A DNA stretch of 64,000 nt from Gammaproteobacteria bacterium (GCA_050298595.1 JBNKUM010000067.1:2976-66975), one strand, 5' to 3'. Numbered from the stretch's first letter, positions 11,801 through 53,761 are shown. Numbers and translations: made by a program. The notes: generated by a model from the sequence alone, not told the origin.

Positions 11801-12552
11801 ACCGAAAAGACTGGCTGCCTGCTGGCGTCACTGATGGCACGTACGGCAGTACTGCTGTCGATGGTCTCGCCATCATCGTTGGTGGGCCGGTTCAAGATGA
11901 AAACAACTGTATCTGACCCAGCGAGCCTGACTCTCTCCTCAATGTGCGAGAGTACTGGATCATCGAAAAGTTCAAGTTCAGAGGGCCTGCTCCGTTGTTC
12001 ATTGTCCTTTTGCAGACTCGCGAAGTTTCCACGGAAAGTCGGCGACTGCTCACCGAGTACAAGTACACGCCGCCCGGGCAGCAACTTATCAATGATCTCC
12101 AGCGTTTCCTTGAACGCAGCCTCTTCGGCAACACCCGTCAGGTTTTTGTATCGGTCCCGAATGTTGGGACTGAGGCCATTAATTCCACAGAAAACCACAG
12201 GTACGTCGGGCGCCAGCAGTGGACGCACGTCCAGCACAAAATCCAGAGCATTGTTGTCCGTTACCGCAATGACCTCAGGGGGATTCCTCTTGAATTTGCT
12301 CTCAAGGGTCTGCAGGAGATCCTGACGCATGAGATCCTTTTGCTCGCGGTAGCGTAAGGAATCGAGATACTCGATGTGCAGGTCAACCGGTATACCGTTA
12401 TTGGCAAGGGCGTTGATGAACCCCTGATGCTGAGAATCGGTCCAGGGCATGCCGCTGTGATAGGAATGGATTAATAGCACACTGTGACTCTGAGCGACAG
12501 CCGTTGCCGACAGCCCCAGCAGAGCAATGAACAAGACAAGTAGTCGAATCAT
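8890..12552 (-). CDS. Hybrid sensor histidine kinase with fused periplasmic ABC-SBP-like domain, PAS repeats, HisKA-HATPase, receiver and a C-terminal extension
   Basis: 1220 aa. Order: signal/TM, ~330-aa SBP-like periplasmic domain, TM (VVAVAVVFTLLLFFGIGMLLL), three PAS-like blocks. Then [19 protein letters not shown] (H-box), [12 protein letters not shown] (G2), and receiver ILIAEDQRDSQ...MDRRMPVMDG. Confidence 0.9.
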   Translation of the reverse strand: MIRLLVLFIALLGLSATAVAQSHSVLLIHSYHSGMPWTDSQHQGFINALANNGIPVDLHIEYLDSLRYREQKDLMRQDLLQTLESKFKRNPPEVIAVTDNNALDFVLDVRPLLAPDVPVVFCGINGLSPNIRDRYKNLTGVAEEAAFKETLEIIDKLLPGRRVLVLGEQSPTFRGNFASLQKDNEQRSRPSELELFDDPVLSHIEERVRLAGSDTVVFILNRPTNDDGETIDSSTAVRAISDASRQPVFSVWDYMFGDGIVGGKLTSGEAHGEVAAQQVIRILNGEEADSIPIEWESANRYLFDYEQLQRFDLQDKSLPEGSVVINRPVNFYELYRDKVVAVAVVFTLLLFFGIGMLLLNRSLTESRNLLDDIVDNLPVMVFLKRASDLSFIRFNRTGQELLGLSREELLGRHDYDFFPKEQADFFISKDRDVLTQTGVVDIPEEPVETVNGTRILHTRKLALRNKEGLPVYLLGISEDITERKQTEHQVTLLSFALNSVHEAAFLIDERARFHFVNEEACRILGYSHDELLASGVEDIDPDWPAVRWPEHWRDLQEKRSITFEGRHRAKDGRIIPVEISANFIEYAEQSYNLALVRDISERKLAEQTLVARERDYRTLIENLPDCITRFAPDCRHLFVNPSVEKTFGIPRKTFIGKSPTQIGKPGDDAINYELEQSILQVFATAQTQKLQMQWQTVDGPRTFEVLYAPEHDEEDKVVSVLGIAHDITYQKQAEETLRRHKDELEELVQQRTDELRLARDAAEAANKAKSTFLANMSHELRTPLNAILGFSQLMRKDQSLNSSQRENLEIINKSGDHLLKLINDVLEISKIEAGKQQLEISTFDLHELVREVSDMMRLKAQQKGLQLELDQSSAFPRYIKGDEARLRQILVNLVSNAVKFTKQGSVTMRLRSKHNAHHHLLIEVEDNGPGISKKDQRRLFKPFEQLSAGTSSQEGTGLGLAIVRQFVQLMGGSVSVESKPGQGSLFRVDLPLNEPDEAEMIRLSAETHGAVAGLAPGQATRRILIAEDQRDSQILLARVMTDLGLDVKVAQNGEECIQIFQQWRPDLILMDRRMPVMDGDEATRRIRELPGGDQVKVVAVTASALKEEEETLRASGMDDYVSKPYRFDEIYHILEKQLGLTLVYAEEESDHEAALVAPPSDQLRELYQLADIGQVFEIQELASRLQAENEVYISFARKLNKLAKGFDLEGISTFIKQYLK

Positions 12553-23271: not shown

Positions 23272-24741
23272 TCATTCTCCACGCTGTTGATCAATACGTC
23301 GTCTGAACGAAGCCATAATGCTTTTATATAACTGATGCCCCAACACCTTGTCTTCTACTTCGGAATCTATACTGGGGTTATCATTCACTTCGATCACAAA
23401 TACACCCGCATCGGTTTCTTTTAGATCTACTCCATATAGACCATCACCAATCAGGTTAGCTGCTTTGACTGCGGTCTTAACTACCTTTTTGGGTGCAGCT
23501 TCTATGGTCATAGTTTCAAAGTCACCGCTATAGTTTTCACCTGCCGCATGATCGTAGATTTGCCAATGTCCGGAAGACATCATGTATTTACACACAAACA
23601 GAGGTTTACGATCGAGTACTCCTACGCGCCAGTCATAATCTGTGTACATGTATTCCTGCGCGAGGATAAGGTCAGAATCGCGAAACAGCTTTTGACAGGT
23701 AGATTTCAGCTCTTTTAAGTTTTCAGCCTTGTAAACACCACGAGAAAAGGAGCCGTCGGGTATCTTTAGAATAATAGGGAAACTAATATCCTTACTGAGT
23801 TGCTTTTCCTGACCCTTGCTCAGGATTAATGTCTTTGGTGTCGGCACCTTATTGGCACGTAATAATTCTTCCAGAAACACCTTGTTAGTACAGCGCAATA
23901 TCGAATCAGGATCATCCATCACCACCAGTCCTTCATTCTGCGCCCGGCGCGCAAAACGAAAGGTATGGTGATCTATGGAAGTCGTTTCACGAATAAACAG
24001 GGCATCATATTCAGCAATGCGACCGTAATCTTTTTTAGTGATCAATTCTGCGGACATGCCTGACTCGTTTGCCGCCTTAATAAAGCACCCGAGTGCCTCT
24101 GCATCTGATGGCGGTAATTTCTCCGCTGGATTGTGCAAGATTGCCAGTTCATATTTATATTGGCGCTGAGCTTTTGGTTTACGCCAGGGTTTACTCAGAT
24201 AAGCCTGTAACGCTGAGACAAAAGTAATCTTTTCCTGATCATCAAGAGACTTGAGTGAAACTGGCCGAACATCTTCTATCCTCCAACCTTTTTTATACCT
24301 GAAATCTACTCGCAGTAAAGGCGTACTAAAGATCTCAAAAATCTGTTGCCCCAGTTCCTGTAACTCAGGAATAGAGGAACGACCAAACATCACTTTGATT
24401 TTCAGGCGTGTTATTTCCGAAGATAGTCCTTTTTTACTGATGGCTTTTTCCACCTGGTTTTCAAGATTTCGTGTCATCAGGCTATAGATAGAGCGTCGAC
24501 TCAAATCCTGAATAGTGCGCACCGACGGTATTACCTTATGGTTCCTGGCTTCGGCTAGCAGTGAACAGTAATAGCCCAGACTGGCATAGCGATGACTGCG
24601 ACACAGATTGACGATGCGCAAGCGCTGCTCGGGGGGATAGCTTTTGCCTGTCAGGTATTCATTTACGGTAATCACTTTCAGATCCGGAAATTGCTTAGGC
24701 CAGTGTGACAGCTTTTCGACGATGACTATGTGCTCTGACAT
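23272..24741 (-). CDS. RimK-like ATP-grasp ligase with long N-terminal domain
   Basis: 489 aa. The C-terminal ~290 aa look like a RimK/glutathione-synthetase-type ATP-grasp (PIILKIPDGSFSRGV, LILAQEYMYTDYDWRV, GVDLKETDAGVFVIEVNDNP). The N-terminal ~200 aa fit the RimK-like N-terminal (RLAN) position; this needs an HMM check. Confidence 0.75.
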   Translation of the reverse strand: MSEHIVIVEKLSHWPKQFPDLKVITVNEYLTGKSYPPEQRLRIVNLCRSHRYASLGYYCSLLAEARNHKVIPSVRTIQDLSRRSIYSLMTRNLENQVEKAISKKGLSSEITRLKIKVMFGRSSIPELQELGQQIFEIFSTPLLRVDFRYKKGWRIEDVRPVSLKSLDDQEKITFVSALQAYLSKPWRKPKAQRQYKYELAILHNPAEKLPPSDAEALGCFIKAANESGMSAELITKKDYGRIAEYDALFIRETTSIDHHTFRFARRAQNEGLVVMDDPDSILRCTNKVFLEELLRANKVPTPKTLILSKGQEKQLSKDISFPIILKIPDGSFSRGVYKAENLKELKSTCQKLFRDSDLILAQEYMYTDYDWRVGVLDRKPLFVCKYMMSSGHWQIYDHAAGENYSGDFETMTIEAAPKKVVKTAVKAANLIGDGLYGVDLKETDAGVFVIEVNDNPSIDSEVEDKVLGHQLYKSIMASFRRRIDQQRGE

Positions 24742-24762
24742 TCTTTTTCTCAGCCCGGGTAA

Positions 24763-25866
24763 TTATTTTTTGTGGTTATTCGAAATCAATACGACAGCCT
24801 GCAGGCCAGAACGACCGAAACGTGCCATGCGTGAGAACTCCCTGCGCGGGATAGCGATATTGATTGAGTCAGTTGGTGTTTCTCCTTCCTCACGATCAAC
24901 AAAAGGGTCATTCACGTATACCAGATGCTGGTCAAATCCACAAACGACTACCCAGTGAGGATTCTTTTCACCATAAATACGGTAAGAACTGATCAGTACA
25001 ATCGGAATCGCACCTGAGTTAAGCCTGGCTTCCATCTCCGGTTGTTCCAGGTTCTGGTAATGCACCGGGATCTGGTAATCTTTGATCTCCCCCAGCATCT
25101 CTTCATGTACCAGACGCATGACTTCTTTCTTTTCTGGGCTACGTACTGTTTCCACAAATGGCACGCCCTGATCATTAACATGAATAACTGCATTGAATCC
25201 ACGCTTATGAGCCGCTAGCGCCAGACCAAAGGGGCCGCAGCCGCCATGGCCGGATGTCATAAATATCGTAGTCGCTTCACGCCATAGACGGATTTCCAGT
25301 GTTCTATCCAGTGTCAATTCAGGTTGCAGACTTTTCATTGCCATCATCAAAGCAGAAGCACCGCAGGTAAATTCCAGTGTCTGCTCGTAAAAAGGCATAT
25401 TGGCTAATTGTGGAGGCTGATCTGGTTGCAGGCTTTTCTCGAAGCGTAGTGCGGGCATATGATCTTCATAATAATCTGCCAGTACGCCAAAGCGATGGTA
25501 GCCCAGTCCTTCAAACAGTCGCAATGACGCAGCATTGTCTTCTCGTATTTCAAGGCGAATATAAAAACGTCCCTGATCACGTGCCGCGGTTTCGGCAGCA
25601 TTGACCAGCCGCCTGCCTATTCCCATGCCACGAGCGCGTTCCTCGATGGCAATAGAATACAGACGTGCAACCGAGGTTGCCCGGTTATATAGCACCATGA
25701 CATATCCAGCCAGCCCTTCATTATCTTCAGATAACAGTATATCCGCATGAGAGCGGGTCAGCAGATAACGCCATTGTCGACGTGAAATCAGGTCTGTCTC
25801 GAAACAACGTTTTTCTATACCCGTGAGCTGGTCAATATCAGAAAGTTTGGCAGGGCGGATCAACAA
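24763..25866 (-). CDS. GNAT N-acetyltransferase fused to papain-like (C39-like) peptidase domain
   Basis: 367 aa. N-terminal half is GNAT (ARGMGIGRRLVNAAE). C-terminal half has Cys (LEFTCGASALMMA), His (NPHWVVVCGF) and Asp (VYVNDP) in papain-fold order. Start is TTG. The 21-nt gap to the ATP-grasp gene suggests an operon. Confidence 0.75.
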   Translation of the reverse strand: MLIRPAKLSDIDQLTGIEKRCFETDLISRRQWRYLLTRSHADILLSEDNEGLAGYVMVLYNRATSVARLYSIAIEERARGMGIGRRLVNAAETAARDQGRFYIRLEIREDNAASLRLFEGLGYHRFGVLADYYEDHMPALRFEKSLQPDQPPQLANMPFYEQTLEFTCGASALMMAMKSLQPELTLDRTLEIRLWREATTIFMTSGHGGCGPFGLALAAHKRGFNAVIHVNDQGVPFVETVRSPEKKEVMRLVHEEMLGEIKDYQIPVHYQNLEQPEMEARLNSGAIPIVLISSYRIYGEKNPHWVVVCGFDQHLVYVNDPFVDREEGETPTDSINIAIPRREFSRMARFGRSGLQAVVLISNNHKK

Positions 25867-27286: not shown

Positions 27287-30100
27287 TTAGTCTTTCAATG
27301 CTTTTAATATGGTCGTGTAGTCAAAGTTCCTGGCGAGCTGAGTCAGTTTGCTCTGTAATTCCTGGTCGTGCATCGAAACCTGCTGGATGACCGCCTCAAT
27401 GCGCTTGGACTCCAGGCTTTCTAGCACTTCAACGAACTCATTGCGCAGTGCTTCAGGCAGGCTATTCAACATCTGCGGCGTTAACGATATATCCGGTTCT
27501 ATTACGTCTGATTCCACAGCGCTCTCATAAAGATATTTCACGCCTAGCTGTCTTGAAAGGCAATCATAAATCTCGCCCGGTCGGTAGGGCTTGCGCACAT
27601 AGTCATCCATGCCACTAGCAAGCATTTCGTCCCGCTCTTCGTCAAACGCCGATGCAGTCACTGCAGCAATCTTAACCTCCTTGCCACCCGCTAATTCACG
27701 GATGCGCCGTGTCGCCTGTATGCCATCCATCACAGGCATGCGTCTATCCATCCAGATGAAATGTGGATGCCAGCTCTCAAACAGTTGTACCCCCTGCTCA
27801 CCGTTCTCGGCTATCCTGACCTTAAAACCAACAGATTCCATAAACCTGCTCAGTAGCAACTGATTATCACGCTGGTCTTCCACGATCAAAATACGATACT
27901 CGCCCTGGTCAGGGGCCAGCGCCATCACTTCGTCCTTGACGATCACCTGCTCTGCCATAGTAATATCTGCCTCCTGTGCTTCAATCAGGGGTAGGTCGAG
28001 CCTGAACAACGAGCCTTTACCTGGAGCACTTTCCAGCCAGATATTCCCGCCCATCATCTTTACAAATTGACGCGTAATCGTTAATCCCAGCCCGGTGCCT
28101 TTATTGGTACCCTGTTCGCCAAGTTGCACAAAAGGCTCGAAAACCTTTTGCTGGTCTTCAACCGCTATGCCAATGCCAGTGTCCTCTACATCGATCAGCA
28201 GATGAGAGATCTTATTATCCTTTGTGTCCAGGCGTAGCGTGACCCCCCCCTGCTCAGTATTTTTGATGGCGTTGCTTACCAGATTGATCAGAATCTGCCG
28301 TAGACGGGCCTGATCACCGACAATGAAACGTGGGAATAGAGAACTCTGGTCGATCCTTAATTGCAGGCCTTTGTTGAAAGCACGTTGCTGCATCATGTCA
28401 ATAATATCGCGCACCAGAGTACCCAGATCGAAGGCTGCATTTTCCAGATTCACCTGTCCCGCTTCGATCTTGGCCATATCTAGCACATCGTTAATCAGCG
28501 CCAGCAGATGTTTACCGCTACGACTAATAATTTCGATGTTCTCACGCAGGGATTCGTGTAGTAATGGATTATTGGTCATGAGTTCGGAGAACCCGAGGAT
28601 GGCGTTCAGAGGTGTGCGAAGTTCATGACTCATATTGGCCAGGAAGGCACTCTTGGCACGGCTGGCTGATTCAGCGTGTTCCTTGGCAGATAGCAACTGC
28701 CGATTTGAATCGGCTAACTCGTGAGTACGTTCATTCACCTTTGCCTCCAGGCCCCCAATTAATGCATGCAATTGACCTGCAATATTATTAAAGACGGATG
28801 TCAGCTCACTGATTTCATCTTCCGATTGGGGTGCTATTGGATGCTGTAGATAACGTCTCAGAGCAATACGCTGGCTATACTCTCTATCTACTTCTTCTTC
28901 CACCATCTCAGGTTTCTCCAGACCCATCGCAGATACTGCCCTGGTAAGCGCCCTGATCGGTGCAACGATTCTACTGATCAAGGAGTATCCGACGGCACCT
29001 CCCAACACAAGAATAAACACAGACGCGGCAATAATGCCCATGACGGTTTGGCGGATGGTGGCAATGGTGTTTTCCCTCGAAAGTGCCTGACTCAGAATAA
29101 GCGAGCTACCATCCTCTGCTATCTGCCAGGGCATAGAAGCCTGGTAGTAGGAATCCCCTCCTATATTTACGGTATGCAACTGGATAAGCGGGTCTCTTTG
29201 CGCAGACAAAACTTCAGTTGGTGTAGCCAGATCTACCAATTGAACACGCTGCTGCCCATCTGCGGAGATAATAGCCGGCAACAAACCCGTCTTCTCAGTA
29301 AGATTTTGCAGAAAGCCTTTGTCAAATACCTGAGTAAAAACAAACATACCGATCCTGACCGGTAAGTCCTCCTGCGTTAGCTGGGCTTGCAAAGCTGTCG
29401 TAGGCGTGGCTATGCTCAGGTTTTCGGCAATGACTTCGTTAAAAGACTGGCGAATCATACCTTGAATCGGCACTATCACGTGCAGCTCGATAACCTCTTG
29501 TGCAGGAAAATCGAAGCTTACCGTCACCCTGTCCACATTGGGAAAGTGGCGATGGATTGATCCTGGCAGTGGGATTTCTGACCAGTTACGCCAGTCATCC
29601 AGCGGTACCTTACCATTTCTGTACTGCTGAATCCCAACCACCCTAGTTTGACTATCGTGTCGCTTTATCATGCCCGCCGCCTGCGGCGTCACAAAATGTG
29701 ACAGGTCATCATCTAGATACACCGCCACACTGGACAGGCGTGCGGAGAGCAGGATTAACTGTAAGCGGTTTAAGGATGTGACCCGGTTAAGACTTACAGC
29801 GCTGTCGAGAGGAGCGCTAGGTTGATTTTTCAGCTTGAGTAGCTGGCTGTATAAAACAGCCATATCGCTAAGATTCTTTTCGTCACGCGCGGCTTGCATA
29901 GACACATTAGACATACGGTTGCGCATTTCCTGTAGATCGTTTTGAAATACGATCAACTCACGTGACAATCGGTTATAGGCTTCTGCCTGACTCTCGCGGT
30001 TAATCAGGTATGAAGCCAGCAGGGCATTAAGCAGCGTAACCGCTAACAGAAATGCCGCAAAGATAGCCAGTAGCTTGTATTTAATACTTACAATTTTCAC
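27287..30100 (-). CDS. Hybrid sensor histidine kinase (HK1): periplasmic domain, HAMP, HisKA-HATPase, receiver, C-terminal extension
   Basis: 937 aa with two TM segments flanking a ~330-aa periplasmic region. [20 protein letters not shown]; GTGLGLTITRQF; receiver ILIVEDQRDNQ...MDRRMPVMDG. Paralogue of 31766..34588. Confidence 0.9.
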   Translation of the reverse strand: MKIVSIKYKLLAIFAAFLLAVTLLNALLASYLINRESQAEAYNRLSRELIVFQNDLQEMRNRMSNVSMQAARDEKNLSDMAVLYSQLLKLKNQPSAPLDSAVSLNRVTSLNRLQLILLSARLSSVAVYLDDDLSHFVTPQAAGMIKRHDSQTRVVGIQQYRNGKVPLDDWRNWSEIPLPGSIHRHFPNVDRVTVSFDFPAQEVIELHVIVPIQGMIRQSFNEVIAENLSIATPTTALQAQLTQEDLPVRIGMFVFTQVFDKGFLQNLTEKTGLLPAIISADGQQRVQLVDLATPTEVLSAQRDPLIQLHTVNIGGDSYYQASMPWQIAEDGSSLILSQALSRENTIATIRQTVMGIIAASVFILVLGGAVGYSLISRIVAPIRALTRAVSAMGLEKPEMVEEEVDREYSQRIALRRYLQHPIAPQSEDEISELTSVFNNIAGQLHALIGGLEAKVNERTHELADSNRQLLSAKEHAESASRAKSAFLANMSHELRTPLNAILGFSELMTNNPLLHESLRENIEIISRSGKHLLALINDVLDMAKIEAGQVNLENAAFDLGTLVRDIIDMMQQRAFNKGLQLRIDQSSLFPRFIVGDQARLRQILINLVSNAIKNTEQGGVTLRLDTKDNKISHLLIDVEDTGIGIAVEDQQKVFEPFVQLGEQGTNKGTGLGLTITRQFVKMMGGNIWLESAPGKGSLFRLDLPLIEAQEADITMAEQVIVKDEVMALAPDQGEYRILIVEDQRDNQLLLSRFMESVGFKVRIAENGEQGVQLFESWHPHFIWMDRRMPVMDGIQATRRIRELAGGKEVKIAAVTASAFDEERDEMLASGMDDYVRKPYRPGEIYDCLSRQLGVKYLYESAVESDVIEPDISLTPQMLNSLPEALRNEFVEVLESLESKRIEAVIQQVSMHDQELQSKLTQLARNFDYTTILKALKD

Positions 30101-30184
30101 TATTAATTAGCATCAGTAATCGATGCACGTCCCTCAATCAATCAGCTGATAAAAAACAGGGGCTCGTTGCACATCCGTTCAACA

Positions 30185-31546
30185 CTACCGATGAGCATAA
30201 CCGTTATGATCTTGAATGTCCTGATCAATCTTTTCGGCTGCTTTACTGAGTTCGGCCTGCACATCAGCCCCTTTAATTATATTATCTACCGCCTCGGCGA
30301 AGACTTTGGTGATAGTTGCATAGGCTGGCGTGAGGGGACGAGGCACAGCCCAACCGGCTTCTATCTGTTGAACATACACGTTTAAAGGGCCACCTGGCTG
30401 GTAAAGCTCTGACCTGGCAAATGCCGATTTACGCGCCGGTACACCAGGGTGAATACCTGTCCAACGCACAATCTTGTCGGGTTGCAGAATATAGTCCAGG
30501 ATCGCCCAGCTCCCTTCAGGATTCTGGCAGGAGCTGGTGATACCAAAATTCCAGGCACCCAAACCAGTTTTGGGTCCATTGCCAAAGTCAGGCATGGGGA
30601 TGACAACCAAATCTTCGCCCAAAGCATCCGCATAGCTGCTATAGGTCCAGTGTCCTACCCAGGAAAGCGCCGCTTTGCCAGAAGCAAAATCCGTATCTCC
30701 CTGTGGGCTGGGGTTAGCCCAGCCCTTCTGGAACCAGCTCTGGAAATGCTGCATAGCTGTGACGGATTGAGGTCCATCCAGTACGCCTTTGGCAGACTGG
30801 TAGTTATTGCGATCAATCAAGTCACCGCCGAAAGACTGCAGGATGGGTGAAAAACCATAGGTAAAGAATTCACCGCGCCCATAGTTGATTTTCATATCCA
30901 GTGGATATTCAACGTCTGGGACGGCGGCCAGTTTTTCTAAAGCCGCTTCAAACTCAGCCAGATCCCATGGCTGCTGGATGGTAGGTATGCGCACGCCAGC
31001 TGCCTTTAGGTACTGGCGATTGCCATACATCGCCAGACCAGAGTCAACTATACCCAGTGTATACAGATTATTATTGTAGGTTCCCTGGGCAATGATAGAG
31101 GGCAGGAAATCGGCCTTCATCTGTGCTGACACAAAGCGGTCTATGGGTTGCAGGTAACCCAGCCAGGCCAGATATGAGACCATAGGTCCGTCAAAGAAAA
31201 GCAGGCAGGGCAGATCACCTGTGCGCCCGGCAGCCAGGATGCGGTCGGTGTAAATGCCTTCTGGCACCAGTGTCATCTCGGCTGAGTAGCGATCCTGCTC
31301 CTTGTTAAAGTCCTTCAGATTGAGTTCCATTGCTTTTAAGGCATTACCGGTACCGGCATTGAACCATACCGTCACGATTTGATTCCTGCTAACTGCGGCT
31401 GATGGAGGCTTAATCTTAGTGGGCGCTGGTTCAGGCGCTATACTGGCTGGTGGGCTTTTAGCAGTGGGTTCACTGGGTGGATCGCAAGCCGTTAGCACGG
31501 ATGCTAGCATGAATAAAATTATTAGATAACTAACCTTCTTGTGCAT
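30185..31546 (-). CDS. Orphan ABC-type (family 1, sugar/MalE-like) substrate-binding lipoprotein (SBP1)
   Basis: 453 aa. Lipobox LTAC followed by Asp at +2 and a Pro-rich linker. No permease or ATPase gene adjacent. 84 nt upstream of HK1. Confidence 0.8.
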   Translation of the reverse strand: MHKKVSYLIILFMLASVLTACDPPSEPTAKSPPASIAPEPAPTKIKPPSAAVSRNQIVTVWFNAGTGNALKAMELNLKDFNKEQDRYSAEMTLVPEGIYTDRILAAGRTGDLPCLLFFDGPMVSYLAWLGYLQPIDRFVSAQMKADFLPSIIAQGTYNNNLYTLGIVDSGLAMYGNRQYLKAAGVRIPTIQQPWDLAEFEAALEKLAAVPDVEYPLDMKINYGRGEFFTYGFSPILQSFGGDLIDRNNYQSAKGVLDGPQSVTAMQHFQSWFQKGWANPSPQGDTDFASGKAALSWVGHWTYSSYADALGEDLVVIPMPDFGNGPKTGLGAWNFGITSSCQNPEGSWAILDYILQPDKIVRWTGIHPGVPARKSAFARSELYQPGGPLNVYVQQIEAGWAVPRPLTPAYATITKVFAEAVDNIIKGADVQAELSKAAEKIDQDIQDHNGYAHR

Positions 31547-31765
31547 GACTTTTCACCTGTAAATGAATCGAATACCTTTTCAATCGTCGAGCTCTAATGA
31601 TCTGCCTGTCAGCAGCGGGATGCATGCGCTACTGCTTTTACTTTTATCTTCATACCCTTCAGACTCCTGAGTGTGAAAACCTATTTCTTACTTACGCGAT
31701 ATATAGCCCAGTTTGCACAGCGGTGTATGAATAATAAACGCCTCAGCCTTAGATCGACAGGCCAA

Positions 31766-34588
31766 TTATTCAGCCTTATTTAGTGCTCTTAATATAGCAG
31801 GGTAATCAAACTTACTGGCGAGCTGGCTGAGTGCCCTGTGTAACGCCGGGTCAATCGCCTCGGTGCGCTGGATCACTGCCTCAATGCTCTCGGGCTCCAG
31901 ACTTTCCAGTACCTCAATAAGCTCACTACGTAACACTTCTGGTAACTTTTCCAGCATCTGTGGCGTTAATACTACATGCTCATCTTGCGCCTTTGACGCA
32001 GTACTTCCGTACAGATATTTAACGCCCAGGTGTTTTGATATCACATCGTAGATTAGCGTCGCTCTGTATGGTTTGCTCACGTAATCGTCCATACCGATTT
32101 TTAGAATTTCATTGCGCTCCTCTTCAAAGGCCGAGGCGGTCACCGCGACAATCTTTACCTCTTTGCCGTCAGGCAATTCCCGGATACGTCGTGTTGCCTG
32201 CATGCCATCCATCACCGGCATATGTATATCCATCCAGATTAAATGTGGATGCCAGCTCTGAAACAGTTGTACACCCTGCTCACCATTTTCCGCCAGCTTT
32301 ATCTGGAAACCAACACTCTCCATAATTTCAGAAAGAAGGAGTTGATTGTCGCTCTGGTCTTCGACGATCAGGATACGGTATTCGGGTTGTCCCGGCGCAA
32401 GGCTAGTCACAACCCCCCTGCCAATCTGATCCGGTTTGCTGATATCCTGTTCCAGTGCTTCCTGCAAGATCAGTTCTATGCTGAATACCGTGCCTTTATC
32501 AATCTCGCTTTGCAGGCTGATACTGCCACCCATCATTTGCACGAACTGGCGCGTAATAGCCAGCCCGAGTCCCGTGCCCTTACTGCTATCCTTTTCACCC
32601 ACCTGTACGAAGGGGTCGAAGATAAGTTGTTGATCTTCAGGGCTGATACCTATGCCTGTATCCTCAACCTCGATCAGCAGATGAGATATTCTGTTTTGCT
32701 TTGTGGCCAGACGCAGAGTCACGCCCCCCTGCTGGGTAGCTCTGATGGCATTCCCTATCAGATTGATCAGAATCTGGCGCAGGCGCGACTCGTCGCCTAC
32801 GATGTAACGAGGGAACTGCGATGACTGGTCGACATGTAATTGCAGATCCTTATTTTCCGCGCGTATGCGCATCATATCGATAACATCTCGTAGCATACCG
32901 CCCAGATCAAAAGGCTCATTCTCCAGTTGTACCCGCCCGGCTTCTATCTTGGCCATTTCCAACACATCGTTGATCAGCGTTAGCAGGTATTCGCCACTAC
33001 GATTAATAATATTATTATTGTGCTGTAATCTTTCAGGCAGTGATGGATCCTGGTTCATCAGGTTGGAAAACCCGAGGATAGCGTTCAATGGGGTACGCAG
33101 TTCGTGGCTCATGTTGGCAAGGAAAGTACTCTTGGCTCGGTTGGCAACTTCGGCCTTTTCTTTGGCCGCCTGTAACTCCTGAGTGCGTTCGTCAACGCGT
33201 TGCTCCAGTGTTTCAAACGATTGCCGCAGTTGCCTGATCATGGCATTGAAGGCGGCGGCCAGTTGCCCTACTTCATCACTGGCTTTAAGGTCAATCTCGA
33301 TCAGCTTATCCGAGACTACAGGCGTATCTTTCGCTGTGGAACTATTAATCTGGGTGTTCAGACCGATGCGTGAAACGCTTTCCGTTAAGGCCACAATCGG
33401 TTTGACCAGACGATCTAACAGTATATAGCCCAATATCCAGACCACGATCAAAACCAGAGTAGCCAGGCCAATGAGTGCAGTAACGGTTTCTCGTATCTTC
33501 TGGGAGGCGCTCGCCCCTGATTGCGTAAACCCGATAATCAGCCGGGCTTTATCGCCATAGTGCAACAGGGTCAGGGCCTGGTAATAGGTTTCATCATCCA
33601 CGCTCAGAATCCTTTGTTGCATCGGTTGTTCAGGTGTCGCCTGACTCTGTTGCACCCATTGCACCAGATCTTCCGGCTTCATCTTCATTTTGACGATTTC
33701 GATTTGATGCATCCCATCTAACGAATACAGTGCTGGTAATAAACCACTTTTCTGCGCAATGCCTTGCAAAAATGCCTGGTCAAAGACCTTCTTGAATACA
33801 AAGGCACCAATGAGAACTGGTTTGATTTGGTCGGGATTTTTCTGGTTAAGCGCTTCCTGAGAAGCGATGACTGGATTGTTGACCACAAATCCTTCGGAGG
33901 AACCCAGGGTAATATTGTTTCGCATTACCGTTCGAGTAATTGCCTGTACCGGGACAACGATTTGCAATACCAACGCCTGCTGTTCAGAAAAATAAAAGGA
34001 AATCATGGGTTGCCTGGGTAATGTAATTTGAGATGAGATTAATGGAGGAGGGGTACCCAGCGGCCATATTGGCCAGTTATTGAACTTCATCTCTCCGCTC
34101 TGATCTGGATCAGTTTTAATCAGCCTCTGCTGCCCCTCCCGAAACACACTGATGCCAGCCTCAGTAGTAGTCACGAAATGACTTAACTCATTGCCCGTGT
34201 AAACGGCGGCGCTGGAAAATCCGGCCGTACGCAGAATAATCTGAAACCGATTCAGTGAAATGGTTTTATCGAACAGGAATCCGCGTTCATTCTTTGATGC
34301 TAGCTCAGGATAGTTCTTAAATTGCTGTGTTTTTGCATACAGCGTAGCCAGATCACTCAAGTTATCGATTCCGGTAACATTTTTTTCGGCAACCCTGCGC
34401 AGATCAGTTATCGTTTCCTGCAACTCGTACTGTAACAGGTCGGTCTGTTTGGTCAGGCTGCTAAACGCCTCTCGCTCGCTTTGTTGCGTGGTCAGGTAGA
34501 TGGCGAGTGCTACATTAAGCCCAGCGATAATGATCAGGGCCGTGCTAAACGCCAGCAGCAATTTCGTCTTGATACCCGATATGTTCAC
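31766..34588 (-). CDS. Hybrid sensor histidine kinase (HK2), paralogue of HK1
   Basis: 940 aa with the same architecture as HK1. [20 protein letters not shown]; [13 protein letters not shown]; receiver [11 protein letters not shown]...[10 protein letters not shown]. Confidence 0.9.
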
Positions 34589-34614
34589 TGTAACTTGTCA
34601 GCTTTTTCTGTGCA

Positions 34615-35982
34615 CTATTTGATCGGATAGCCGCCGTGATCTTTTATATCCTGGTCAATTTCCTGCGCCGCCCGGTGAAGTTCCGTTTTGACGTCTGCGC
34701 CATTAATAATATTCTCCATCGCTTCGGCAAAGACCTTTGAGATCACGGCATACGCTGGAGTGATCGGACGAGGAATGGCGCGCTCGCTTTCCAGTTGTTG
34801 TGCAATCAAATGTAAGGGGCCTGATTCACCATACAATTTTGACTGTGCCAGCACTGACTTCCGGGCCGGTGGGCCTCCGTTTTCGTTCGTCATACGTAAC
34901 ATTTCCTGCGGGGATAGCAGGAACTCGATGAATGTCCAGGCGCCAGTGGGATCCGGGCAATTGCTGGATATCCCCCAGCTCCAGCTACCCATCGCGGTTT
35001 TTGACCCATACCCAAAATCAGGCTGCGGTAACAACACCAGATCTTCCCCCAGAGCCTCGGCATGCGGTTTGTACATCCAGTGCCCCACCCAGGCGAGGGC
35101 CGCTTTTTTAGATCCGTAAAAATCGTCGTCCGTGGTCCTGGATTTGCCGGCCCAGCCCTTTTCAAACCAGCTCTGAAAGTGTTGCATGGCCTCAATCGAC
35201 TGGGGACTATCCAGCACGCCAGTTGCATGCTGGTAGCTGCTGCGATCAATCAGATCACCACCAAATGACTGGATGATGGGCGTAAAACACCATGAATAAA
35301 ACTCGCCAGGACCATAATTAATTTTCATATCAATTGCATACTCTACGTCAGGCAGGGCGGTCAGTTTTGCCAGCGCCTCTTCAAATTCGACCAGATTCCA
35401 CGGTTTTTCAAAGGTCGGTATGCGGATTCCAGCCGCGTTCAGATAGCGGCGATTGCCGTAGATTACCAGCCCTGAGTCAAACTGTCCGAGGCTATAGAGC
35501 TGTCCGTTGAAGGTTCCCTGGGTGAGAATCGAGGGCAATAAGTCGGCTTTTAGATCTGCTGAAACAAAACGGTCAATCGGCTGCAGATAGCCTGGCCATG
35601 CAAAGTTATAGAGGTATGGACCGTCAAACTCCAGGGCGCAGGCCAAACTACCAGACTGTGCGCTGCCAATGATCCGGTCAGCATAGATTTCCGGTGCAAT
35701 CGGCACATATTCTATGGTGTATTTATTTTGAGCCTGCTCAAAGGCTTCCACCGACTTAGCAAACACATCACCTTCTATGCTGCCAGGTAACATATGCGTC
35801 CAGACGCTGATCACTTTGCGCCTGTCTGTCTGGGGCGAGGGTGTTGAAGGTAGCGCTGTTGGTACTGAAGAGGGAGCGGCTAAAGCAGTGGATGTAGTCA
35901 AGTCCGAAATCCTGCAAAAAGTTAGTATCATGGCCACCAGAATCAGCTTATTTTGATAAAGTATTTTCTTTCTCATTTTCAC
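34615..35982 (-). CDS. Orphan ABC-type (family 1) substrate-binding protein (SBP2), paralogue of SBP1
   Basis: 455 aa with a signal sequence and a Pro/Ser/Thr-rich linker. Long blocks shared with SBP1 (DMKINYG, IQSFGGDLIDR, MQHFQSWF). 26 nt upstream of HK2. Confidence 0.8.
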   Translation of the reverse strand: MKMRKKILYQNKLILVAMILTFCRISDLTTSTALAAPSSVPTALPSTPSPQTDRRKVISVWTHMLPGSIEGDVFAKSVEAFEQAQNKYTIEYVPIAPEIYADRIIGSAQSGSLACALEFDGPYLYNFAWPGYLQPIDRFVSADLKADLLPSILTQGTFNGQLYSLGQFDSGLVIYGNRRYLNAAGIRIPTFEKPWNLVEFEEALAKLTALPDVEYAIDMKINYGPGEFYSWCFTPIIQSFGGDLIDRSSYQHATGVLDSPQSIEAMQHFQSWFEKGWAGKSRTTDDDFYGSKKAALAWVGHWMYKPHAEALGEDLVLLPQPDFGYGSKTAMGSWSWGISSNCPDPTGAWTFIEFLLSPQEMLRMTNENGGPPARKSVLAQSKLYGESGPLHLIAQQLESERAIPRPITPAYAVISKVFAEAMENIINGADVKTELHRAAQEIDQDIKDHGGYPIK

Positions 35983-36121
35983 TCCCCTCTAATGTACTTC
36001 AATACCAATGAGTAATTTCGGGCTCCTGACAAGCCGGCTCTGCTTATAATTAGGGCACCTCCGATGTAAATATTATGCCTTTCATATGTATCCAAATTAT
36101 GATTTGCCTGCTACATCATTA

Positions 36122-37927
36122 TTATTTCTGGAAATTTTCGGGTGAAATCCCCTTGCTGCACATCTCCAGAATTTTGTCTCCTGATACGGACTTGCTGTAA
36201 TAAAACCCTTGCGCAACATCACAATCCACGGATTTCAGAAATTCCTGCTGAGTACCCATCTCAACGCCTTCAGCAACCACTTTCAGATTCAGGCTATGGG
36301 CCATGGCAATAATGGCCAACGGAATCGCATTGCCATGCTCAGTACCAATGTTTTTTATAAAGGACTTATCGATCTTCAGTTCGTTGACGGGGAAATCCTG
36401 CAAATAGGCTAGACTTGAATATCCTGTTCCGAAATCATCAACTGAAAGCCCAACACCTAAATCATGCAGCTTGTTTAGAATATCCAGATTAGTTTTACTG
36501 TACTGCATCAGCAGACTTTCGGTTATCTCCAGTCCAAGCCTGGAGGGCGGTATCTGAAACTCTTCAATAGTACGATGCACGGTATCTTCAAAGCCATCTG
36601 AGTGTAATTGCGGCACTGAGATATTTACCGAGATAGATAAATCATCATAACCAGCATCATGCCATCGTCTTAATTCTGCACAACTCTCACGTAAGCCAAA
36701 CGCTCCAAGTTCCTTGATCAGTCCATTCGCTTCTGCTACCGGGATAAATTCTGCCGGGGATATCAACGTTCCATTGGCGAGACGCCATCGCATTAGCGCT
36801 TCAGCACCTATGATTTTATTTGTAGTTAAATCAATCTGTGGTTGATACTCCATAAACAGTTCCTGATTATGAATCGCATCTATGAGCAAATTGGAAAGGT
36901 TAAGATGATCCTGCACAGTCCTGTTTAATTCGCTGGTATACAGTTTGATTTCGGCTCGACCAGATTGCTTGGCGTGATACATGGCGGTATCGGCATTGCT
37001 CAACAGGGTATCCACATCCGTGCCGTCCTCCGGGTAAACAGCTATACCAATGCTAGCACCTATATGAAAATTCAAATCATTCATTTGAAATGGTATTCGA
37101 AGAGAATCAAATATTTTTCTGGCCATAGCCATGATATCTTGATTTTTCTGATGCAATGGTAGACAAATTACAAACTCATCTCCACCCAGCCTGGCAACAA
37201 TATCTTCATCACGTATGGCACTTTTAAGTCTATCGGCAACTTTACTTAGCAGCTTGTCGCCAGCATGATGTCCTAACGAATCGTTAATAATTTTAAATTG
37301 ATCCAGATCGAGAAACATCAATGCAATATTCTCATCACATCGTTTCGCTCGAGTGATTAGCTGGTTAAGTCGCTCCACCAACAATATACGATTGGGCATG
37401 TCGGTTAACGAATCATGAGTAGCGATATACCTGACCTGTTCTTCAACTCGCTTTCGCTCCTCAATTTCATGGCGTAATAAAACGTTAGCATCAACTAGCT
37501 CCTGAGTGCGCTCGCTAATACGTATATCAAGCTCTTTGCGTAAACCCGAAAGCTCGAGATGAGTATTGATTCGAGCCATTACTTCCGCAAAATTGATCGG
37601 TTTGGTAATGTAATCGACAGCACCCACGGCAAAACCATGCACCATATCGGATGTTTCTGTAGCAGCGCTTAAGAATATGATAGGGATATCTATCAGATCC
37701 TGTTCTAATCTGATGCGACGACAGGTCTCATAGCCATCAATACCCGGCATCATAATATCAAGCAGAATAAGGTCTGGCTTAGGGAGATTGGCCAGTTTTA
37801 GGCGTCGAAGTGCCTGTTCTCCACTTTGCGCGACTGCTATCTTGAGATTCTGCCCCTCAAGACCGTCAACTAGCAACTTCAGATTGGCAGGATTATCGTC
37901 AACTAGCAGGATAATTTTACTTACCAT
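36122..37927 (-). CDS. Response regulator with GGDEF and EAL domains (c-di-GMP turnover)
   Basis: 601 aa. Receiver ILLVDDNPANL...LLDIMMPGIDG. Intact GGDEF (RLGGDEFVI). Intact EAL domain (GAEALMRW, DDFGTGYSSL). Confidence 0.9.
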   Translation of the reverse strand: MVSKIILLVDDNPANLKLLVDGLEGQNLKIAVAQSGEQALRRLKLANLPKPDLILLDIMMPGIDGYETCRRIRLEQDLIDIPIIFLSAATETSDMVHGFAVGAVDYITKPINFAEVMARINTHLELSGLRKELDIRISERTQELVDANVLLRHEIEERKRVEEQVRYIATHDSLTDMPNRILLVERLNQLITRAKRCDENIALMFLDLDQFKIINDSLGHHAGDKLLSKVADRLKSAIRDEDIVARLGGDEFVICLPLHQKNQDIMAMARKIFDSLRIPFQMNDLNFHIGASIGIAVYPEDGTDVDTLLSNADTAMYHAKQSGRAEIKLYTSELNRTVQDHLNLSNLLIDAIHNQELFMEYQPQIDLTTNKIIGAEALMRWRLANGTLISPAEFIPVAEANGLIKELGAFGLRESCAELRRWHDAGYDDLSISVNISVPQLHSDGFEDTVHRTIEEFQIPPSRLGLEITESLLMQYSKTNLDILNKLHDLGVGLSVDDFGTGYSSLAYLQDFPVNELKIDKSFIKNIGTEHGNAIPLAIIAMAHSLNLKVVAEGVEMGTQQEFLKSVDCDVAQGFYYSKSVSGDKILEMCSKGISPENFQK

Positions 37928-41330: not shown

Positions 41331-43027
41331 TGGCACAGCCTGTGTGAAAACCCTACTTAGGAGTATAATAAGTCATTCAAATAGACAGGTGAAACAATGA
41401 CTGGATTCATTGAAGGCGTAGCCAGAATACAAGCCACCTTATTTCCTGAATTACTTGACGATTACATCAGCGAAGAAAATCCCGTTCGCGTTATTGATGC
41501 CTTTGTCGATAATCTTGACCTCGATAAATTGGGTTTCAAAACCTACCCAGCAATAACCGGTCGTCCTGGTTACCACCCATCCAGCATGCTCAAGCTGTTT
41601 ATCTACGGTTACCTCAATCGTATCCAGTCTTCTCGTCGTTTAGAAAGGGAGTCGGGGCGTAATGTCGAGTTAATGTGGTTACTCGGTCGTCTATCTCCCG
41701 ACTTTAAAACCATAGCTGACTTTAGAAAAGATAATGGTAAAGGCATTAAAAATACCTGTCGAACCTTTATCGATTTGTGCAGACAATTAAATATGTTCAC
41801 CGATGCTATTGTCGCCATTGATGGCAGTAAATTTAAAGCAGTCAATAGTAAAGAAAATAATTACACACCCAAGAAACTACAATTTCATATAGACCGGGTT
41901 GAGAAGCATATCGAAGACTATTTACAACAACTCGATACCGCTGACAGGGCAGAAAAACCAGAGACTGATGGCAGGTCTATCGAAGATAAAATCACCTGGC
42001 TTAAGAAAAGACTCGCTGAGTTAAAGGCACTGGAAGGTGAGGTGGACAATCATCCTGACAAACAACTATCAACAACGGATCCGGACTCTCGATTAATGAA
42101 AACACAAGGGATGACCAGAGTGGTTTGTTACAATGTACAAACGGCCGTTGACCCCAAAAACCACCTGATTGTAGCCCATAAGGTAACGAATACACCTGAT
42201 CGTGGACAACTCTGCGGTGTAGGTAAACTGGCTCAAGACGCACTGGATACTAAAGGGATCACTGTTATTGCTGACAAAGGTTATTACAGTGGCCAGGATA
42301 TCAAAGATGCTCAGGATGCGGGTATGACGGTACTTGTACCCAAAGGTGATACTTCTGGCAGCGAGAAAAAAGGCATATTTAACCGATCCCGGTTCGAATA
42401 CGATGCAGAGCAAGATAGATATATTTGCCCCGCCAAACAAGAGTTATCCTATCGATTCACTTCGGTTGAGAAAGGACTATCGTTAAAGAAGTATTGGGCC
42501 TATGAACCCACTTGTAGGGCTTGCTCGATGAAACCACAATGCTCTAACAGTAATCAGGCTCGTAGAATCACTCGTTGGGTTCATCAGGATAGATTGGATC
42601 AAATGGACAAGTTACTCTCTTCTCAGCCAGAGTGCATGCTCATCAGAAAGCAAACCGTTGAACACCCTTATGGCACGATTAAATGCTGGATGGGATCAAC
42701 TCATTTTTTAACGAGACAATTCAAAAATGTCAGCACCGAAATGAGTCTGCATGTTTTGGCTTACAATTTAAAACGCATGATGTCGTTATTTGGACAGGCT
42801 GGATTAGTCGCCGCAATGACAAAGGTATAGGGATTAATGGCCCATAGTAATTGCATCTATAAAATACGTCGATATGACGTGTTTATTCTTTTGTGTAAGC
42901 CAGACAATTTTCTTATTCATAAAAAGGACTCTGAAAATAAGGAAGCTCAGGACTTAGCATAAGAAGTCTGAATAATGACTGGAGGACGAAATTATTAAGA
43001 TAATAGTTTTTACACAGCCTGGGCACA
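41331..43027 (+). mobile_element. IS1182-family insertion sequence
   Basis: Imperfect ~21-bp terminal inverted repeats: tggcacagcctgtgtgaaaac (41331-41351) versus the reverse complement of gtttttacacagcctgggcac (43006-43026), 16/21 matches by hand. They flank a single transposase ORF. Confidence 0.75.
41397..42830 (+). CDS. IS1182-family DDE transposase
   Basis: 477 aa, uninterrupted. N-terminal pattern LFPELLDDYISEENPVRVIDAFV...GRPGYHPSSMLKLFIYGYLNRIQSSRRLERE is typical of IS1182/IS5-like transposases. Confidence 0.85.
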   Translation: MTGFIEGVARIQATLFPELLDDYISEENPVRVIDAFVDNLDLDKLGFKTYPAITGRPGYHPSSMLKLFIYGYLNRIQSSRRLERESGRNVELMWLLGRLSPDFKTIADFRKDNGKGIKNTCRTFIDLCRQLNMFTDAIVAIDGSKFKAVNSKENNYTPKKLQFHIDRVEKHIEDYLQQLDTADRAEKPETDGRSIEDKITWLKKRLAELKALEGEVDNHPDKQLSTTDPDSRLMKTQGMTRVVCYNVQTAVDPKNHLIVAHKVTNTPDRGQLCGVGKLAQDALDTKGITVIADKGYYSGQDIKDAQDAGMTVLVPKGDTSGSEKKGIFNRSRFEYDAEQDRYICPAKQELSYRFTSVEKGLSLKKYWAYEPTCRACSMKPQCSNSNQARRITRWVHQDRLDQMDKLLSSQPECMLIRKQTVEHPYGTIKCWMGSTHFLTRQFKNVSTEMSLHVLAYNLKRMMSLFGQAGLVAAMTKV

Positions 43028-53700: not shown

Positions 53701-53761
53701 GGATTGATATCATCAGGATGAAAAGACAAAAAAGAATGGCAAGGCATCTGGCCAACCGGGA

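Follow-up and report, generated by a model that had tools for sequence, protein, structure and literature searches.

We propose that five genes at positions 27,287 to 37,927 of the window, the 64,000-nucleotide stretch of DNA analysed here, encode two parallel binding-protein-dependent sensors, or three-component systems, which would signal through an HPt protein to a REC-GGDEF-EAL response regulator. We give this reading a probability of about 0.6. The binding of each solute-binding protein (SBP) to its kinase, the nature of the ligand, and how the signal reaches the GGDEF-EAL protein are the parts that we infer. The central idea of an earlier, sequence-only reading, that orphan SBPs act as co-sensors of hybrid kinases, gains support from the recurrence of the SBP-kinase adjacency, the grouping of these SBPs in one clade, the dCache-like fold of the sensor, and the co-location of SBP, kinase and c-di-GMP response regulator in distant relatives.

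Organization of the locus

ORF calling places the five genes on the minus strand, in the order and at the coordinates that the sequence-only reading had given. The host is a salt-marsh root bacterium.

36122..37927, minus strand: REC-GGDEF-EAL response regulator, 601 aa (Response_reg-GGDEF-EAL in Pfam)
34615..35982, minus strand: SBP2, CUT1-type (SBP_bac_1/8) solute-binding protein, 455 aa (Pfam)
31766..34588, minus strand: HK2, hybrid histidine kinase, 940 aa (Pfam, hydrophobic segments, motifs in the translation)
33503..34483, minus strand: periplasmic sensor domain of HK2, aa 36-362, predicted dCache-like fold after extra helices; no Pfam model
31769..32017, minus strand: C-terminal tail of HK2 behind REC, aa 858-940, small helical domain, not an HPt
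30185..31546, minus strand: SBP1, paralogue of SBP2, 453 aa (Pfam SBP_bac_8/SBP_bac_1)
27287..30100, minus strand: HK1, hybrid histidine kinase, paralogue of HK2 with the same architecture, 937 aa (Pfam)
29045..29998, minus strand: periplasmic sensor domain of HK1, aa 35-352, sharing 32% identity with the HK2 domain

Public gene calls start SBP2 two codons later, giving 453 aa. The intervals of 26 and 84 nt from SBP stop to kinase start had been read correctly. The motifs quoted as shared are all present, except that IQSFGGDLIDR is exact in SBP2 only, SBP1 having LQSFGGDLIDR.

Two diverged modules

SBP1 and SBP2 are 53% identical (E 1e-180; 56% over the mature part) and HK1 and HK2 49% identical (E 0), far beyond chance, so that the pairs are clear paralogues, as had been proposed. 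The earlier impression, gained by eye, that the periplasmic parts have diverged more than the cytoplasmic cores holds when measured: identity between the kinases is 32% in the periplasmic part against 72% in DHp, 68% in CA and 76% in REC. With divergence concentrated in the sensor and far smaller in the transmitter and REC, the kinases fit an arrangement of two sensors with one output; most likely, the modules report different ligands or ligand ranges to one shared downstream path.

The duplication is old, not recent. A related genome carries the modules at separate sites: DGC-SBP1-HK1 lies in the same synteny at locus L016, with SBP2-HK2 on another contig (L015). The SBP-HK modules move as units. 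In L009 and L016, HK1-type kinases have an SBP1-type orthologue (94-97% identity) in front of them, and at other loci HK2-type kinases come after SBPs with 70-81% identity to SBP2. In three genomes the pairing is unchanged: SBP1 goes with HK1, SBP2 with HK2.

The binding proteins and their transporter cousins

Both SBPs belong to SBP_bac_8/SBP_bac_1 (Pfam E 1e-23 and 2.5e-20). A PDB profile search with SBP2 returned 70 matches, essentially all to carbohydrate-type SBPs (best 5ci5, 1e-27), and this typing as family-1 (CUT1) sugar SBPs agrees with the description given earlier. Read from the sequence, both would be exported. The N-terminus of SBP1 is hydrophobic and has LTAC as its lipobox, with Asp at position +2; that of SBP2 has a hydrophobic segment, a Cys (ILTFC) and a Pro/Ser/Thr-rich linker. 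The Cys belongs to the consensus of the SBP family, and SBP2 is a probable lipoprotein.

Pfam scans, together with two genes for which public annotation alone was used, took in all non-nested ORFs of 130 aa or more in the 64-kb window. None encodes a BPD_transp_1 permease or a genuine ABC_tran ATPase, which bears out the reported lack of ABC permease and ATPase genes. The sole ABC_tran match, a sub-threshold P-loop in a CysN/CysC protein, was rejected as an ABC ATPase.

A survey of 79 related loci separates two contexts. At all 12 distinct loci of the kinase-linked clade among them, and at 13 loci besides the window in all, the gene directly after that of the SBP encodes a kinase with a homologous sensor, and there is no permease; among the others, the SBP is followed by two BPD_transp_1 permeases in about 63 of 67. 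In this survey, the kinase-linked clade is always next to a kinase, and its sister members are mostly in ABC operons; the earlier reading had called for this comparison. Flanks were inspected to 10 kb where the contig allows, and no permease occurs in those of the 13 kinase-linked loci or of L084, L087 and L088, so that SBP-kinase adjacency free of ABC genes extends across all of these and the window. The CUT1 arrangement of an SBP encoded with two BPD_transp_1 permeases is found neither in the window nor in the kinase-linked clade. In a neighbour-joining tree, the kinase-linked SBPs are monophyletic inside the CUT1 sugar-SBP family, nearly all other members of which are encoded in ABC operons together with LacI, fructokinase and GH32 genes. 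We propose that they represent a signalling-dedicated lineage, apparently derived from CUT1 ABC-transporter SBPs.

The alternative that survives best, though it is unlikely, is that these SBPs have a dual role, delivering sugar to an ABC importer encoded elsewhere and informing the kinases secondarily. The family is one of bona fide CUT1 transporter SBPs, the family alignment shows many residues invariant across the kinase-linked and transporter-linked groups, and GltB-GtrS, CBP-ChiS and ChvE-VirA work in this manner (PMC8050422). Moreover, the genome was inspected over 64 kb, and a cognate ABC transporter may lie elsewhere. Against a dual role stand the consistent lack of permeases at the kinase-linked loci, when most sister loci have one directly downstream, and the separate clade, a pattern shown by the signalling-dedicated CuaD and NagB1.

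The neighbours of the transporter-linked cousins give some indication of ligand. LacI genes occur at 46 of 63 loci, GH32 beta-fructosidase-like genes at about 32, PfkB kinases at 17 and sucrose-phosphate-synthase-like GT4 genes at 19. It is tempting to suppose a sucrose- or fructoside-like sugar, but our confidence is low: identity between the sensor SBPs and the transporter SBPs of sucrose or fructoside type is no more than 48-57%, and the transfer of ligand is correspondingly weak.

The hybrid kinases and their sensor domain

Both kinases are HAMP-HisKA-HATPase_c-Response_reg proteins in Pfam, and neither has an Hpt match. HK2 consists of TM1, a periplasmic sensor of about 330 aa, TM2, HAMP, HisKA, HATPase_c, REC and a tail of about 85 aa; the H-box, the G-boxes and the Asp of REC can all be recognized in its translated sequence. 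SHELRTP and WMD..MPVMDG are common to HK1 and HK2, which thus carry the phospho-accepting His and Asp of a hybrid kinase.

The sensor domains lie between two TM segments and are modelled with confidence as dCache-like, the fold of LuxQ, NagS and HptS and one known to dock SBPs. Neither matches Pfam dCache_1 (PF02743) or HK_sensor_dom_bact (PF21623) at E up to 0.01; both Pfam models do match an unrelated kinase beside the L079 SBP. The sequence family is separate from Pfam dCache, although the modelled fold is dCache-like. Rare as a family (69 clusters out of 1.84 billion representatives), it is also modular, being carried by kinases, hybrid kinases and four chemoreceptors. Distant members, at 24-29% identity, still lie beside an SBP of the same family. 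SBP and sensor-domain distances correlate closely (r = 0.96 over 18 pairs, including both paralogue pairs; Mantel 0/5000), although co-inheritance by itself could produce such a correlation.

An SBP gene and a kinase gene may be neighbours without any functional connection, as AgtS and AruS illustrate (PMC11113362). The least probable alternative, direct sensing of small molecules by the dCache-like pockets, with the SBP genes merely co-located or co-regulated and making no contact with the kinases, runs against an adjacency of SBP clade and rare sensor that persists across phyla and down to 24% sensor identity, and against the matched paralogue pairs in three genomes. If the genes had no functional link, such a lasting association would be difficult to account for. 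We presume SBP1 to be the co-sensor of HK1, and SBP2 that of HK2.

The tail of HK2 is ruled out as an HPt: it has no conserved His across homologues and no Pfam match, and it forms four short helices in the AF2 model. Tails of this type are also found on other hybrid kinases. Another hybrid kinase, the third in the window (8890..12552), has the same type of transmitter and tail as HK1 and HK2. No Hpt domain was found among the window ORFs of 130 aa or more, whether fused to the kinases or encoded nearby, and the earlier description of hybrid kinases with no HPt in the locus stands.

The c-di-GMP enzyme as candidate output

Pfam assigns REC to aa 6-120 (Response_reg, 1.3e-28), GGDEF to aa 169-324 (6.6e-53) and EAL to aa 349-579 (7.5e-72) of the response regulator. 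The REC Asp and the GGDEF, EAL(MR), EITE, DDFGTG and EGVE motifs are readable in the translation, and an RxxD I-site lies 5 residues upstream of GGDEF. Both catalytic motifs are intact, as had been noted, and the protein is presumed to be the output enzyme, making and/or breaking c-di-GMP.

Response regulators for c-di-GMP adjoin the module in seven distinct proteobacterial loci: REC-GGDEF-EAL in the window and, as orthologues, in L009, L014 and L016; REC-PAS-GGDEF-EAL in L004 and L087; and REC-HD-GYP in L012. No c-di-GMP gene is seen at four proteobacterial loci; of these, L005 has full flanks, and the contigs of L006, L015 and L088 are cut or short. In Chloroflexota, the modules are accompanied by other kinases and REC proteins and not by c-di-GMP genes.

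Outer-membrane partners also recur. A LamB-type porin gene directly precedes the SBP in L004, L012 and L014, and a TonB-dependent receptor gene does so in L087 and L088. In some distant relatives, an outer-membrane receptor, the SBP, the hybrid kinase and a REC-PAS-GGDEF-EAL protein still follow one another in that order, and Ca. Thiodiazotropha loci have a LamB-type porin in addition.

A somewhat less probable alternative than a dual role of the SBPs is that the modules are real sensors whose output is something other than the adjacent REC-GGDEF-EAL protein, an HPt passing the signal to a regulator elsewhere. A hybrid kinase depends on an HPt, which is not encoded in this region; the Chloroflexota versions and L005 do without c-di-GMP genes; and the third hybrid kinase suggests a wider shared relay. 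The composition of the GGDEF-EAL gene differs too (GC3 of 0.41, against 0.52-0.55 in the four SBP and HK genes), so its pairing with the modules in this genome may be secondary. What argues for the adjacent output is that REC-containing c-di-GMP enzymes of three architectures adjoin the seven loci, including the distant L087.

Proposed mechanism

The SBPs would be exported and, judging from signal sequence and lipobox, probably lipid-anchored. Each would bind a periplasmic carbohydrate, the class being suggested by the family, and would dock on the dCache-like domain of the kinase encoded just downstream, as adjacency, co-inheritance and fold suggest. Docking would shift the kinase/phosphatase balance of the hybrid kinase. 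Phosphoryl groups would pass from His to Asp inside the kinase and then, most likely, through a stand-alone HPt encoded elsewhere, and on reaching the REC domain of the REC-GGDEF-EAL protein would set the balance of c-di-GMP synthesis and breakdown. No HPt is encoded in the window, so that this last part of the route is tentative.

Comparison with known systems

GltB-GtrS of Pseudomonas aeruginosa resembles the present modules in having an SBP_bac_1 sugar SBP, which activates the neighbouring sensor kinase GtrS, and a sensor without a Pfam profile (PMC8050422). A family-1 SBP as kinase co-sensor, considered unusual earlier, thus has a precedent. However, GltB also serves a glucose ABC transporter and chemoreceptors, whereas no transporter partner is seen for the present SBPs.

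NspS-MbaA of Vibrio cholerae shares an SBP_bac_8 protein and a dCache-like periplasmic domain, and NspS gates c-di-GMP turnover (PMC8050422). NspS, however, binds polyamines, and its direct target is a GGDEF-EAL protein of the membrane; in the present locus, a hybrid kinase and phosphorelay are proposed to stand between a sugar-type SBP and a soluble REC-GGDEF-EAL protein.

TorT-TorS likewise combines an orphan binding protein with a hybrid kinase. The NCBIfam TorS model (TIGR02956) is the best NCBIfam match to the cytoplasmic part of our kinases, but at 375-380 bits against an equivalog cut-off of 676.5, and the sensor is not covered. The matches end at model position 825-838 of 967, leaving unmatched the C-terminal part, which we take to be the HPt of TorS. 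The LuxQ equivalog scores 280-308 bits against a cut-off of 1200, matching the cytoplasmic part alone; LuxQ and TorS matches begin at residue 369 or later in HK1 and HK2. The TorS sensor is HBM-like (PMC8050422), whereas those here are dCache-like.

LuxP-LuxQ, the autoinducer-2 sensor of Vibrio, has quorum-sensing transcription, not c-di-GMP, as its output. A review places only MBP, PotD and NspS in SBP_bac_8, with GltB in SBP_bac_1 (PMC8050422); since LuxP is absent from these listings, we do not regard it as a CUT1-type SBP.

CuaD-CuaS-CuaR of Ruminiclostridium cellulolyticum (PMC10384115) and, in Paenibacillus sp. FPU-7, NagB1 and the sensor kinase encoded next to it (PMC8233162) are sugar three-component systems, with sugar SBPs encoded beside two-component genes. 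Their hosts are Firmicutes, in contrast to the Gram-negative host here, and CuaDSR drives expression of sugar-uptake genes, whereas the adjacent regulator here is a c-di-GMP enzyme. The present kinases, unlike theirs, are hybrids with a distinct sensor sequence family, and relatives add a porin or a TonB-dependent receptor. Binding-protein sensing is thus a known type, found here in a rare and undescribed family.

The five-gene locus

Five long minus-strand open reading frames follow one another in the same orientation; they are listed here in transcription order:

36122..37927, minus strand, REC-GGDEF-EAL response regulator, hereafter the GGDEF-EAL gene (Pfam Response_reg-GGDEF-EAL)
34615..35982, minus strand, SBP2, sugar solute-binding protein (Pfam SBP_bac_8/SBP_bac_1)
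31766..34588, minus strand, HK2, hybrid histidine kinase (Pfam HAMP-HisKA-HATPase_c-Response_reg)
30185..31546, minus strand, SBP1, paralogue of SBP2 (Pfam SBP_bac_8/SBP_bac_1)
27287..30100, minus strand, HK1, paralogue of HK2 (Pfam HAMP-HisKA-HATPase_c-Response_reg)

The two SBPs are 53% identical and the two kinases 49%, and the gene order, domains and paralogy that a sequence-only reading had proposed are thus borne out by the reading frames, the Pfam matches and these identities. That reading had also judged the periplasmic parts of the kinases to be more diverged than the cytoplasmic cores, which agrees with the regional identities: 32% in the periplasmic part against 72% in the DHp, 68% in the CA and 76% in the REC domain, with 55% in the C-terminal tail. 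One motif described as shared by the SBPs, IQSFGGDLIDR, is exact in SBP2 and reads LQSFGGDLIDR in SBP1. In translation, a Pro-rich linker comes after the LTAC lipobox of SBP1, and SBP2 has ILTFC with a Pro/Ser/Thr linker. The GGDEF, RxxD I-site, EAL, DDFGTG and EGVE motifs of the GGDEF-EAL protein are all intact, and each kinase has two hydrophobic segments enclosing ~320-330 residues.

NCBIfam provides no SBP family name for SBP1 or SBP2. Its TorS, BarA and LuxQ models match HK1 and HK2 below their cut-offs and in the cytoplasmic parts only; by these cut-offs, membership in LuxQ or TorS is ruled out. A promoter and terminator scan of the locus gave counts no higher than those of shuffled controls.

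Pfam scans and the public annotation, covering all non-nested reading frames of at least 130 aa, revealed no ABC permease and no true ABC ATPase in the window, as had been claimed from the sequence. The exact SBP2 protein also occurs on contigs of assemblies JBNKYM and JBNKSW, which are MAGs from Spartina alterniflora roots (Gammaproteobacteria, GTDB order GCA-001735895, ~45% GC; PMC13061883).

The window holds a further trio of genes at 51625..56232 (plus strand), for a TonB-dependent receptor, a periplasmic DUF4154 protein resembling YfiR/HmsC and a hybrid histidine kinase of the CHASE8 type; the trio looks like another envelope-signalling module.

Phosphorelay and the post-REC tail

Neither HK1 nor HK2 contains an HPt domain, and Pfam finds none elsewhere among the window's non-nested reading frames of at least 130 aa, so the earlier remark that the locus encodes no HPt holds for the whole window. 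The REC domains are followed by a helical tail of ~65-85 aa:

31769..32017, minus strand, post-REC helical tail of HK2
27290..27541, minus strand, post-REC helical tail of HK1
15445..17799 of L004 (a related locus), kinase with the same tail

A degenerate HPt in this ~85-aa tail is ruled out, since it has no conserved His and no Pfam match even at E = 1; its model consists of four short helices and not a long four-helix bundle. It must be assumed that the relay uses a stand-alone HPt encoded elsewhere or direct DHp-to-REC transfer.

The tail is conserved and found on many hybrid kinases, among them a cytoplasmic REC-PAS kinase in L004 and a 1220-aa hybrid histidine kinase of the window (8890..12552, minus strand). 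The latter has an N-terminal periplasmic domain like ABC_sub_bind (PF04392) and three PAS domains; its transmitter, REC and tail are of the HK1/HK2 type (51% identity to the L004 cytoplasmic kinase). Given this fusion kinase beside the SBP-HK pairs, the genome has both fused and separate binding-protein sensors, which possibly share one relay.

The sensor domain

The periplasmic sensor domain of HK1 and HK2 has no match in Pfam and none in a sequence search of the PDB. A word-indexed protein search returned 15 relatives only; in an exhaustive HMM search that covered 1.84 billion cluster representatives, no more than 69 clusters matched, 40 at values below 1e-30. The 31 long matches were aligned with HK1 and HK2, and a Pfam scan of these 33 proteins found HATPase_c in 27, 16 of which also have REC; a chemoreceptor signalling domain occurs in four and an HPt in one. 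Taken together, the negative searches, the 69 clusters and the varied architectures describe a modular, rare, unannotated extracytoplasmic sensor, and a profile for it would improve the annotation of kinases and chemoreceptors.

Its model has a dCache-like fold, the fold of the SBP-docking LuxQ, NagS and HptS; only ~217 residues align, and extra helices stand ahead of the first PAS-like module. By this likeness each SBP would dock on the sensor of the adjoining kinase. Alternatively, the dCache domain may sense a ligand directly; against this stands the persistence of the SBP next to the kinase, which even at 24-29% sensor identity (L084/L085, L087 and L088) still adjoins an SBP (SBP_bac_1/8) from the family of SBP1 and SBP2. 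Adjacency can nonetheless mislead, as work on P. aeruginosa AgtS and AruS showed (PMC11113362).

Transporter-linked and kinase-linked relatives

An SBP profile scan, limited to one genome per species, yielded 79 loci. Reading frames were called in each, and kinases, sensor domains, GGDEF-EAL proteins and permeases were marked by BLAST and locally built HMMs, with the permease seeds checked against Pfam. In L004-L016 the gene immediately 3′ of the SBP encodes a kinase with a periplasmic domain homologous to the one in HK1 or HK2; the same marking found no permease in these loci, which belong to Ca. Thiodiazotropha, unclassified Gammaproteobacteria MAGs, and Anaerolineae or Promineifilaceae MAGs. 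In ~63 of the remaining 67, two BPD_transp_1 permease genes come next after the SBP. Such transporter-linked SBPs share 48-57% identity with SBP2; their sources are Chloroflexota, Actinomycetota, Atribacterota and Spirochaetes.

The split is clean, and in a neighbour-joining tree the kinase-linked SBPs form one clade with SBP1-type and SBP2-type sub-clades. This is a clean evolutionary case in which one clade of transporter SBPs turned to signalling along with a rare sensor domain that lacks a Pfam profile. The SBPs may still have a dual role and also serve a distant ABC transporter, as their ancestry would allow; the permease-free loci speak against it.

One exception, L079 (9854..14241), has an SBP within the transporter clade beside an unrelated hybrid kinase with a canonical dCache_1/HK_sensor_dom_bact sensor; here the SBP family seems to have been recruited to signalling independently.

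Inheritance and movement of the modules

The distance matrices of SBPs and sensor domains correlate at r = 0.96 over 18 pairs (Mantel 0/5000), which shows co-inheritance as a unit and not contact. The SBP1-HK1 and SBP2-HK2 pairings are kept in three genomes. In a related MAG, L016 (7927..18638) reads DGC-SBP1-HK1, the DGC being the orthologue of the GGDEF-EAL gene, followed by the same downstream genes as in the window and without SBP2-HK2; the SBP2-HK2 pair of that MAG is on a separate contig, L015 (1991..6241). From the kept pairings and this separation it follows that the SBP-kinase pair is a mobile unit and that the duplication is old. The duplication itself, noted earlier from the sequence, is confirmed as two paralogous pairs; a recent tandem event is ruled out, the paralogues being 49-56% identical while each has 93-97% orthologues in other genomes.

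Among the downstream genes, a RimK-like ATP-grasp protein with an RLAN domain lies beside a GNAT-DUF3335 (peptidase C39-like) protein in the window (23272..25866, minus strand), and this pair is also kept 3′ of HK1 in L016.

GC3 is 0.52-0.55 in the four SBP/HK genes (27287..35982) against 0.41 in the GGDEF-EAL gene and 0.41-0.48 in the neighbours, a contrast that would fit modules acquired horizontally. Nearby, at 41397..42830, there is a gene for an IS-type DDE transposase. SBP2-type SBPs also occur in four Chloroflexota MAGs (L007, L008, L010 and L013; Anaerolineae, Promineifilaceae), one on a 1.96-Mb contig, and are 75-80% identical in the mature region to the gammaproteobacterial protein. 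This implies cross-phylum transfer, with mis-binning possible for L007. The kinases are non-hybrid and ~700 aa long in three of the four loci and 973 aa in L007, and all sit within clusters of other PAS/GAF kinases. The higher GC3 and the Chloroflexota SBPs together suggest horizontal spread of the modules.

c-di-GMP enzymes and outer-membrane partners

A c-di-GMP enzyme with a REC domain adjoins the module in seven distinct proteobacterial loci: REC-GGDEF-EAL orthologues in the window, L009, L014 and L016, REC-PAS-GGDEF-EAL in L004 and L087, and REC-HD-GYP in L012. The modules may nevertheless feed an output other than the neighbouring enzyme. L005 shows no c-di-GMP gene, and neither do L006, L015 and L088, whose contigs are cut or short; in the Chloroflexota loci, other kinases and single REC proteins take its place.

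In Ca. Thiodiazotropha a LamB-family porin gene lies directly 5′ of the sensor SBP:

L004, 6990..8507, LamB-family porin
L012, 8415..9905, LamB-family porin
L014, 3293..4843, LamB-family porin

These porins, of 496-516 aa, fall under the maltoporin cut-off (173 vs 394 bits) and have an N-terminal extension of ~70-90 aa, which may resemble that of the sucrose porin ScrY. In L087 and L088 a TonB-dependent receptor is directly 5′ of the SBP. Neither kind of gene adjoins the locus in the window.

Candidate ligands

Of the 63 loci of transporter-linked cousins, 46 have a LacI repressor among the flanking genes, ~32 a GH32 beta-fructosidase-like enzyme, 19 a sucrose-phosphate-synthase-like GT4 protein and 17 a PfkB sugar kinase. 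These neighbours point to uptake of sucrose or a fructoside by the transporter branch and give a weak hint of such a ligand for the sensor branch. Sucrose accumulates in the rhizospheres of seagrass and marine plants (PMC9262712), and Caulobacter has a sucrose TonB-dependent receptor (PMC11909599). The hosts are uncultured Gammaproteobacteria of salt-marsh Spartina roots, with relatives in Ca. Thiodiazotropha of roots and lucinid clams (PMC13061883, PMC11059160). Habitats, rhizosphere sucrose and the Caulobacter receptor together make a plant-sugar signal plausible, if speculative.

Interpretation and significance

The best-supported reading is that two parallel binding-protein-dependent sensors feed a single downstream path, whose most likely output is the adjacent c-di-GMP enzyme; docking would then set the kinase, with one sign or the other, and thereby c-di-GMP. 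SBP-dependent kinases are established in LuxPQ, TorTS, HptAS, ChvE-VirA, AioXS, CBP-ChiS and GltB-GtrS, and NspS-MbaA is such a system for c-di-GMP (PMC8050422); sugar SBPs are also encoded beside two-component genes, as with CuaD (PMC10384115) and NagB1 (PMC8233162). Because GltB-GtrS is a precedent for a family-1 SBP as kinase co-sensor, a MalE-like SBP is not unusual in this role, contrary to the sequence-only reading. What differs from the known systems is the rare sensor-domain family, the duplication of the module, the hybrid kinase beside a c-di-GMP response regulator and, in relatives, the outer-membrane partner. The locus thus extends a known mechanism and overturns no current understanding.

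It is tempting, though we consider it rather unlikely as a whole, to propose that the modules are part of a hitherto undescribed pathway for sensing sugars across the envelope in plant- and animal-associated sulfur oxidisers of the Gammaproteobacteria (Ca. Thiodiazotropha and relatives). A host-derived sugar (sucrose, a fructoside) would enter through an outer-membrane glycoporin or TonB-dependent receptor, to be caught by a lipoprotein SBP that has left transport and read by a new dCache-type domain specialised for CUT1 SBP docking. The hybrid-kinase phosphorelay would then switch the bifunctional c-di-GMP enzyme and so control root or host attachment, and the duplication would provide two sugar channels for one c-di-GMP decision.

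Few of the signals that govern c-di-GMP enzymes are known. For this locus the input side is possibly tractable: soluble SBPs lend themselves to purification and ligand screening, and the context of their transporter cousins already gives candidate ligands. If true, control of c-di-GMP by sugars would matter for the way in which these sulfur oxidisers colonise their plant and animal hosts.
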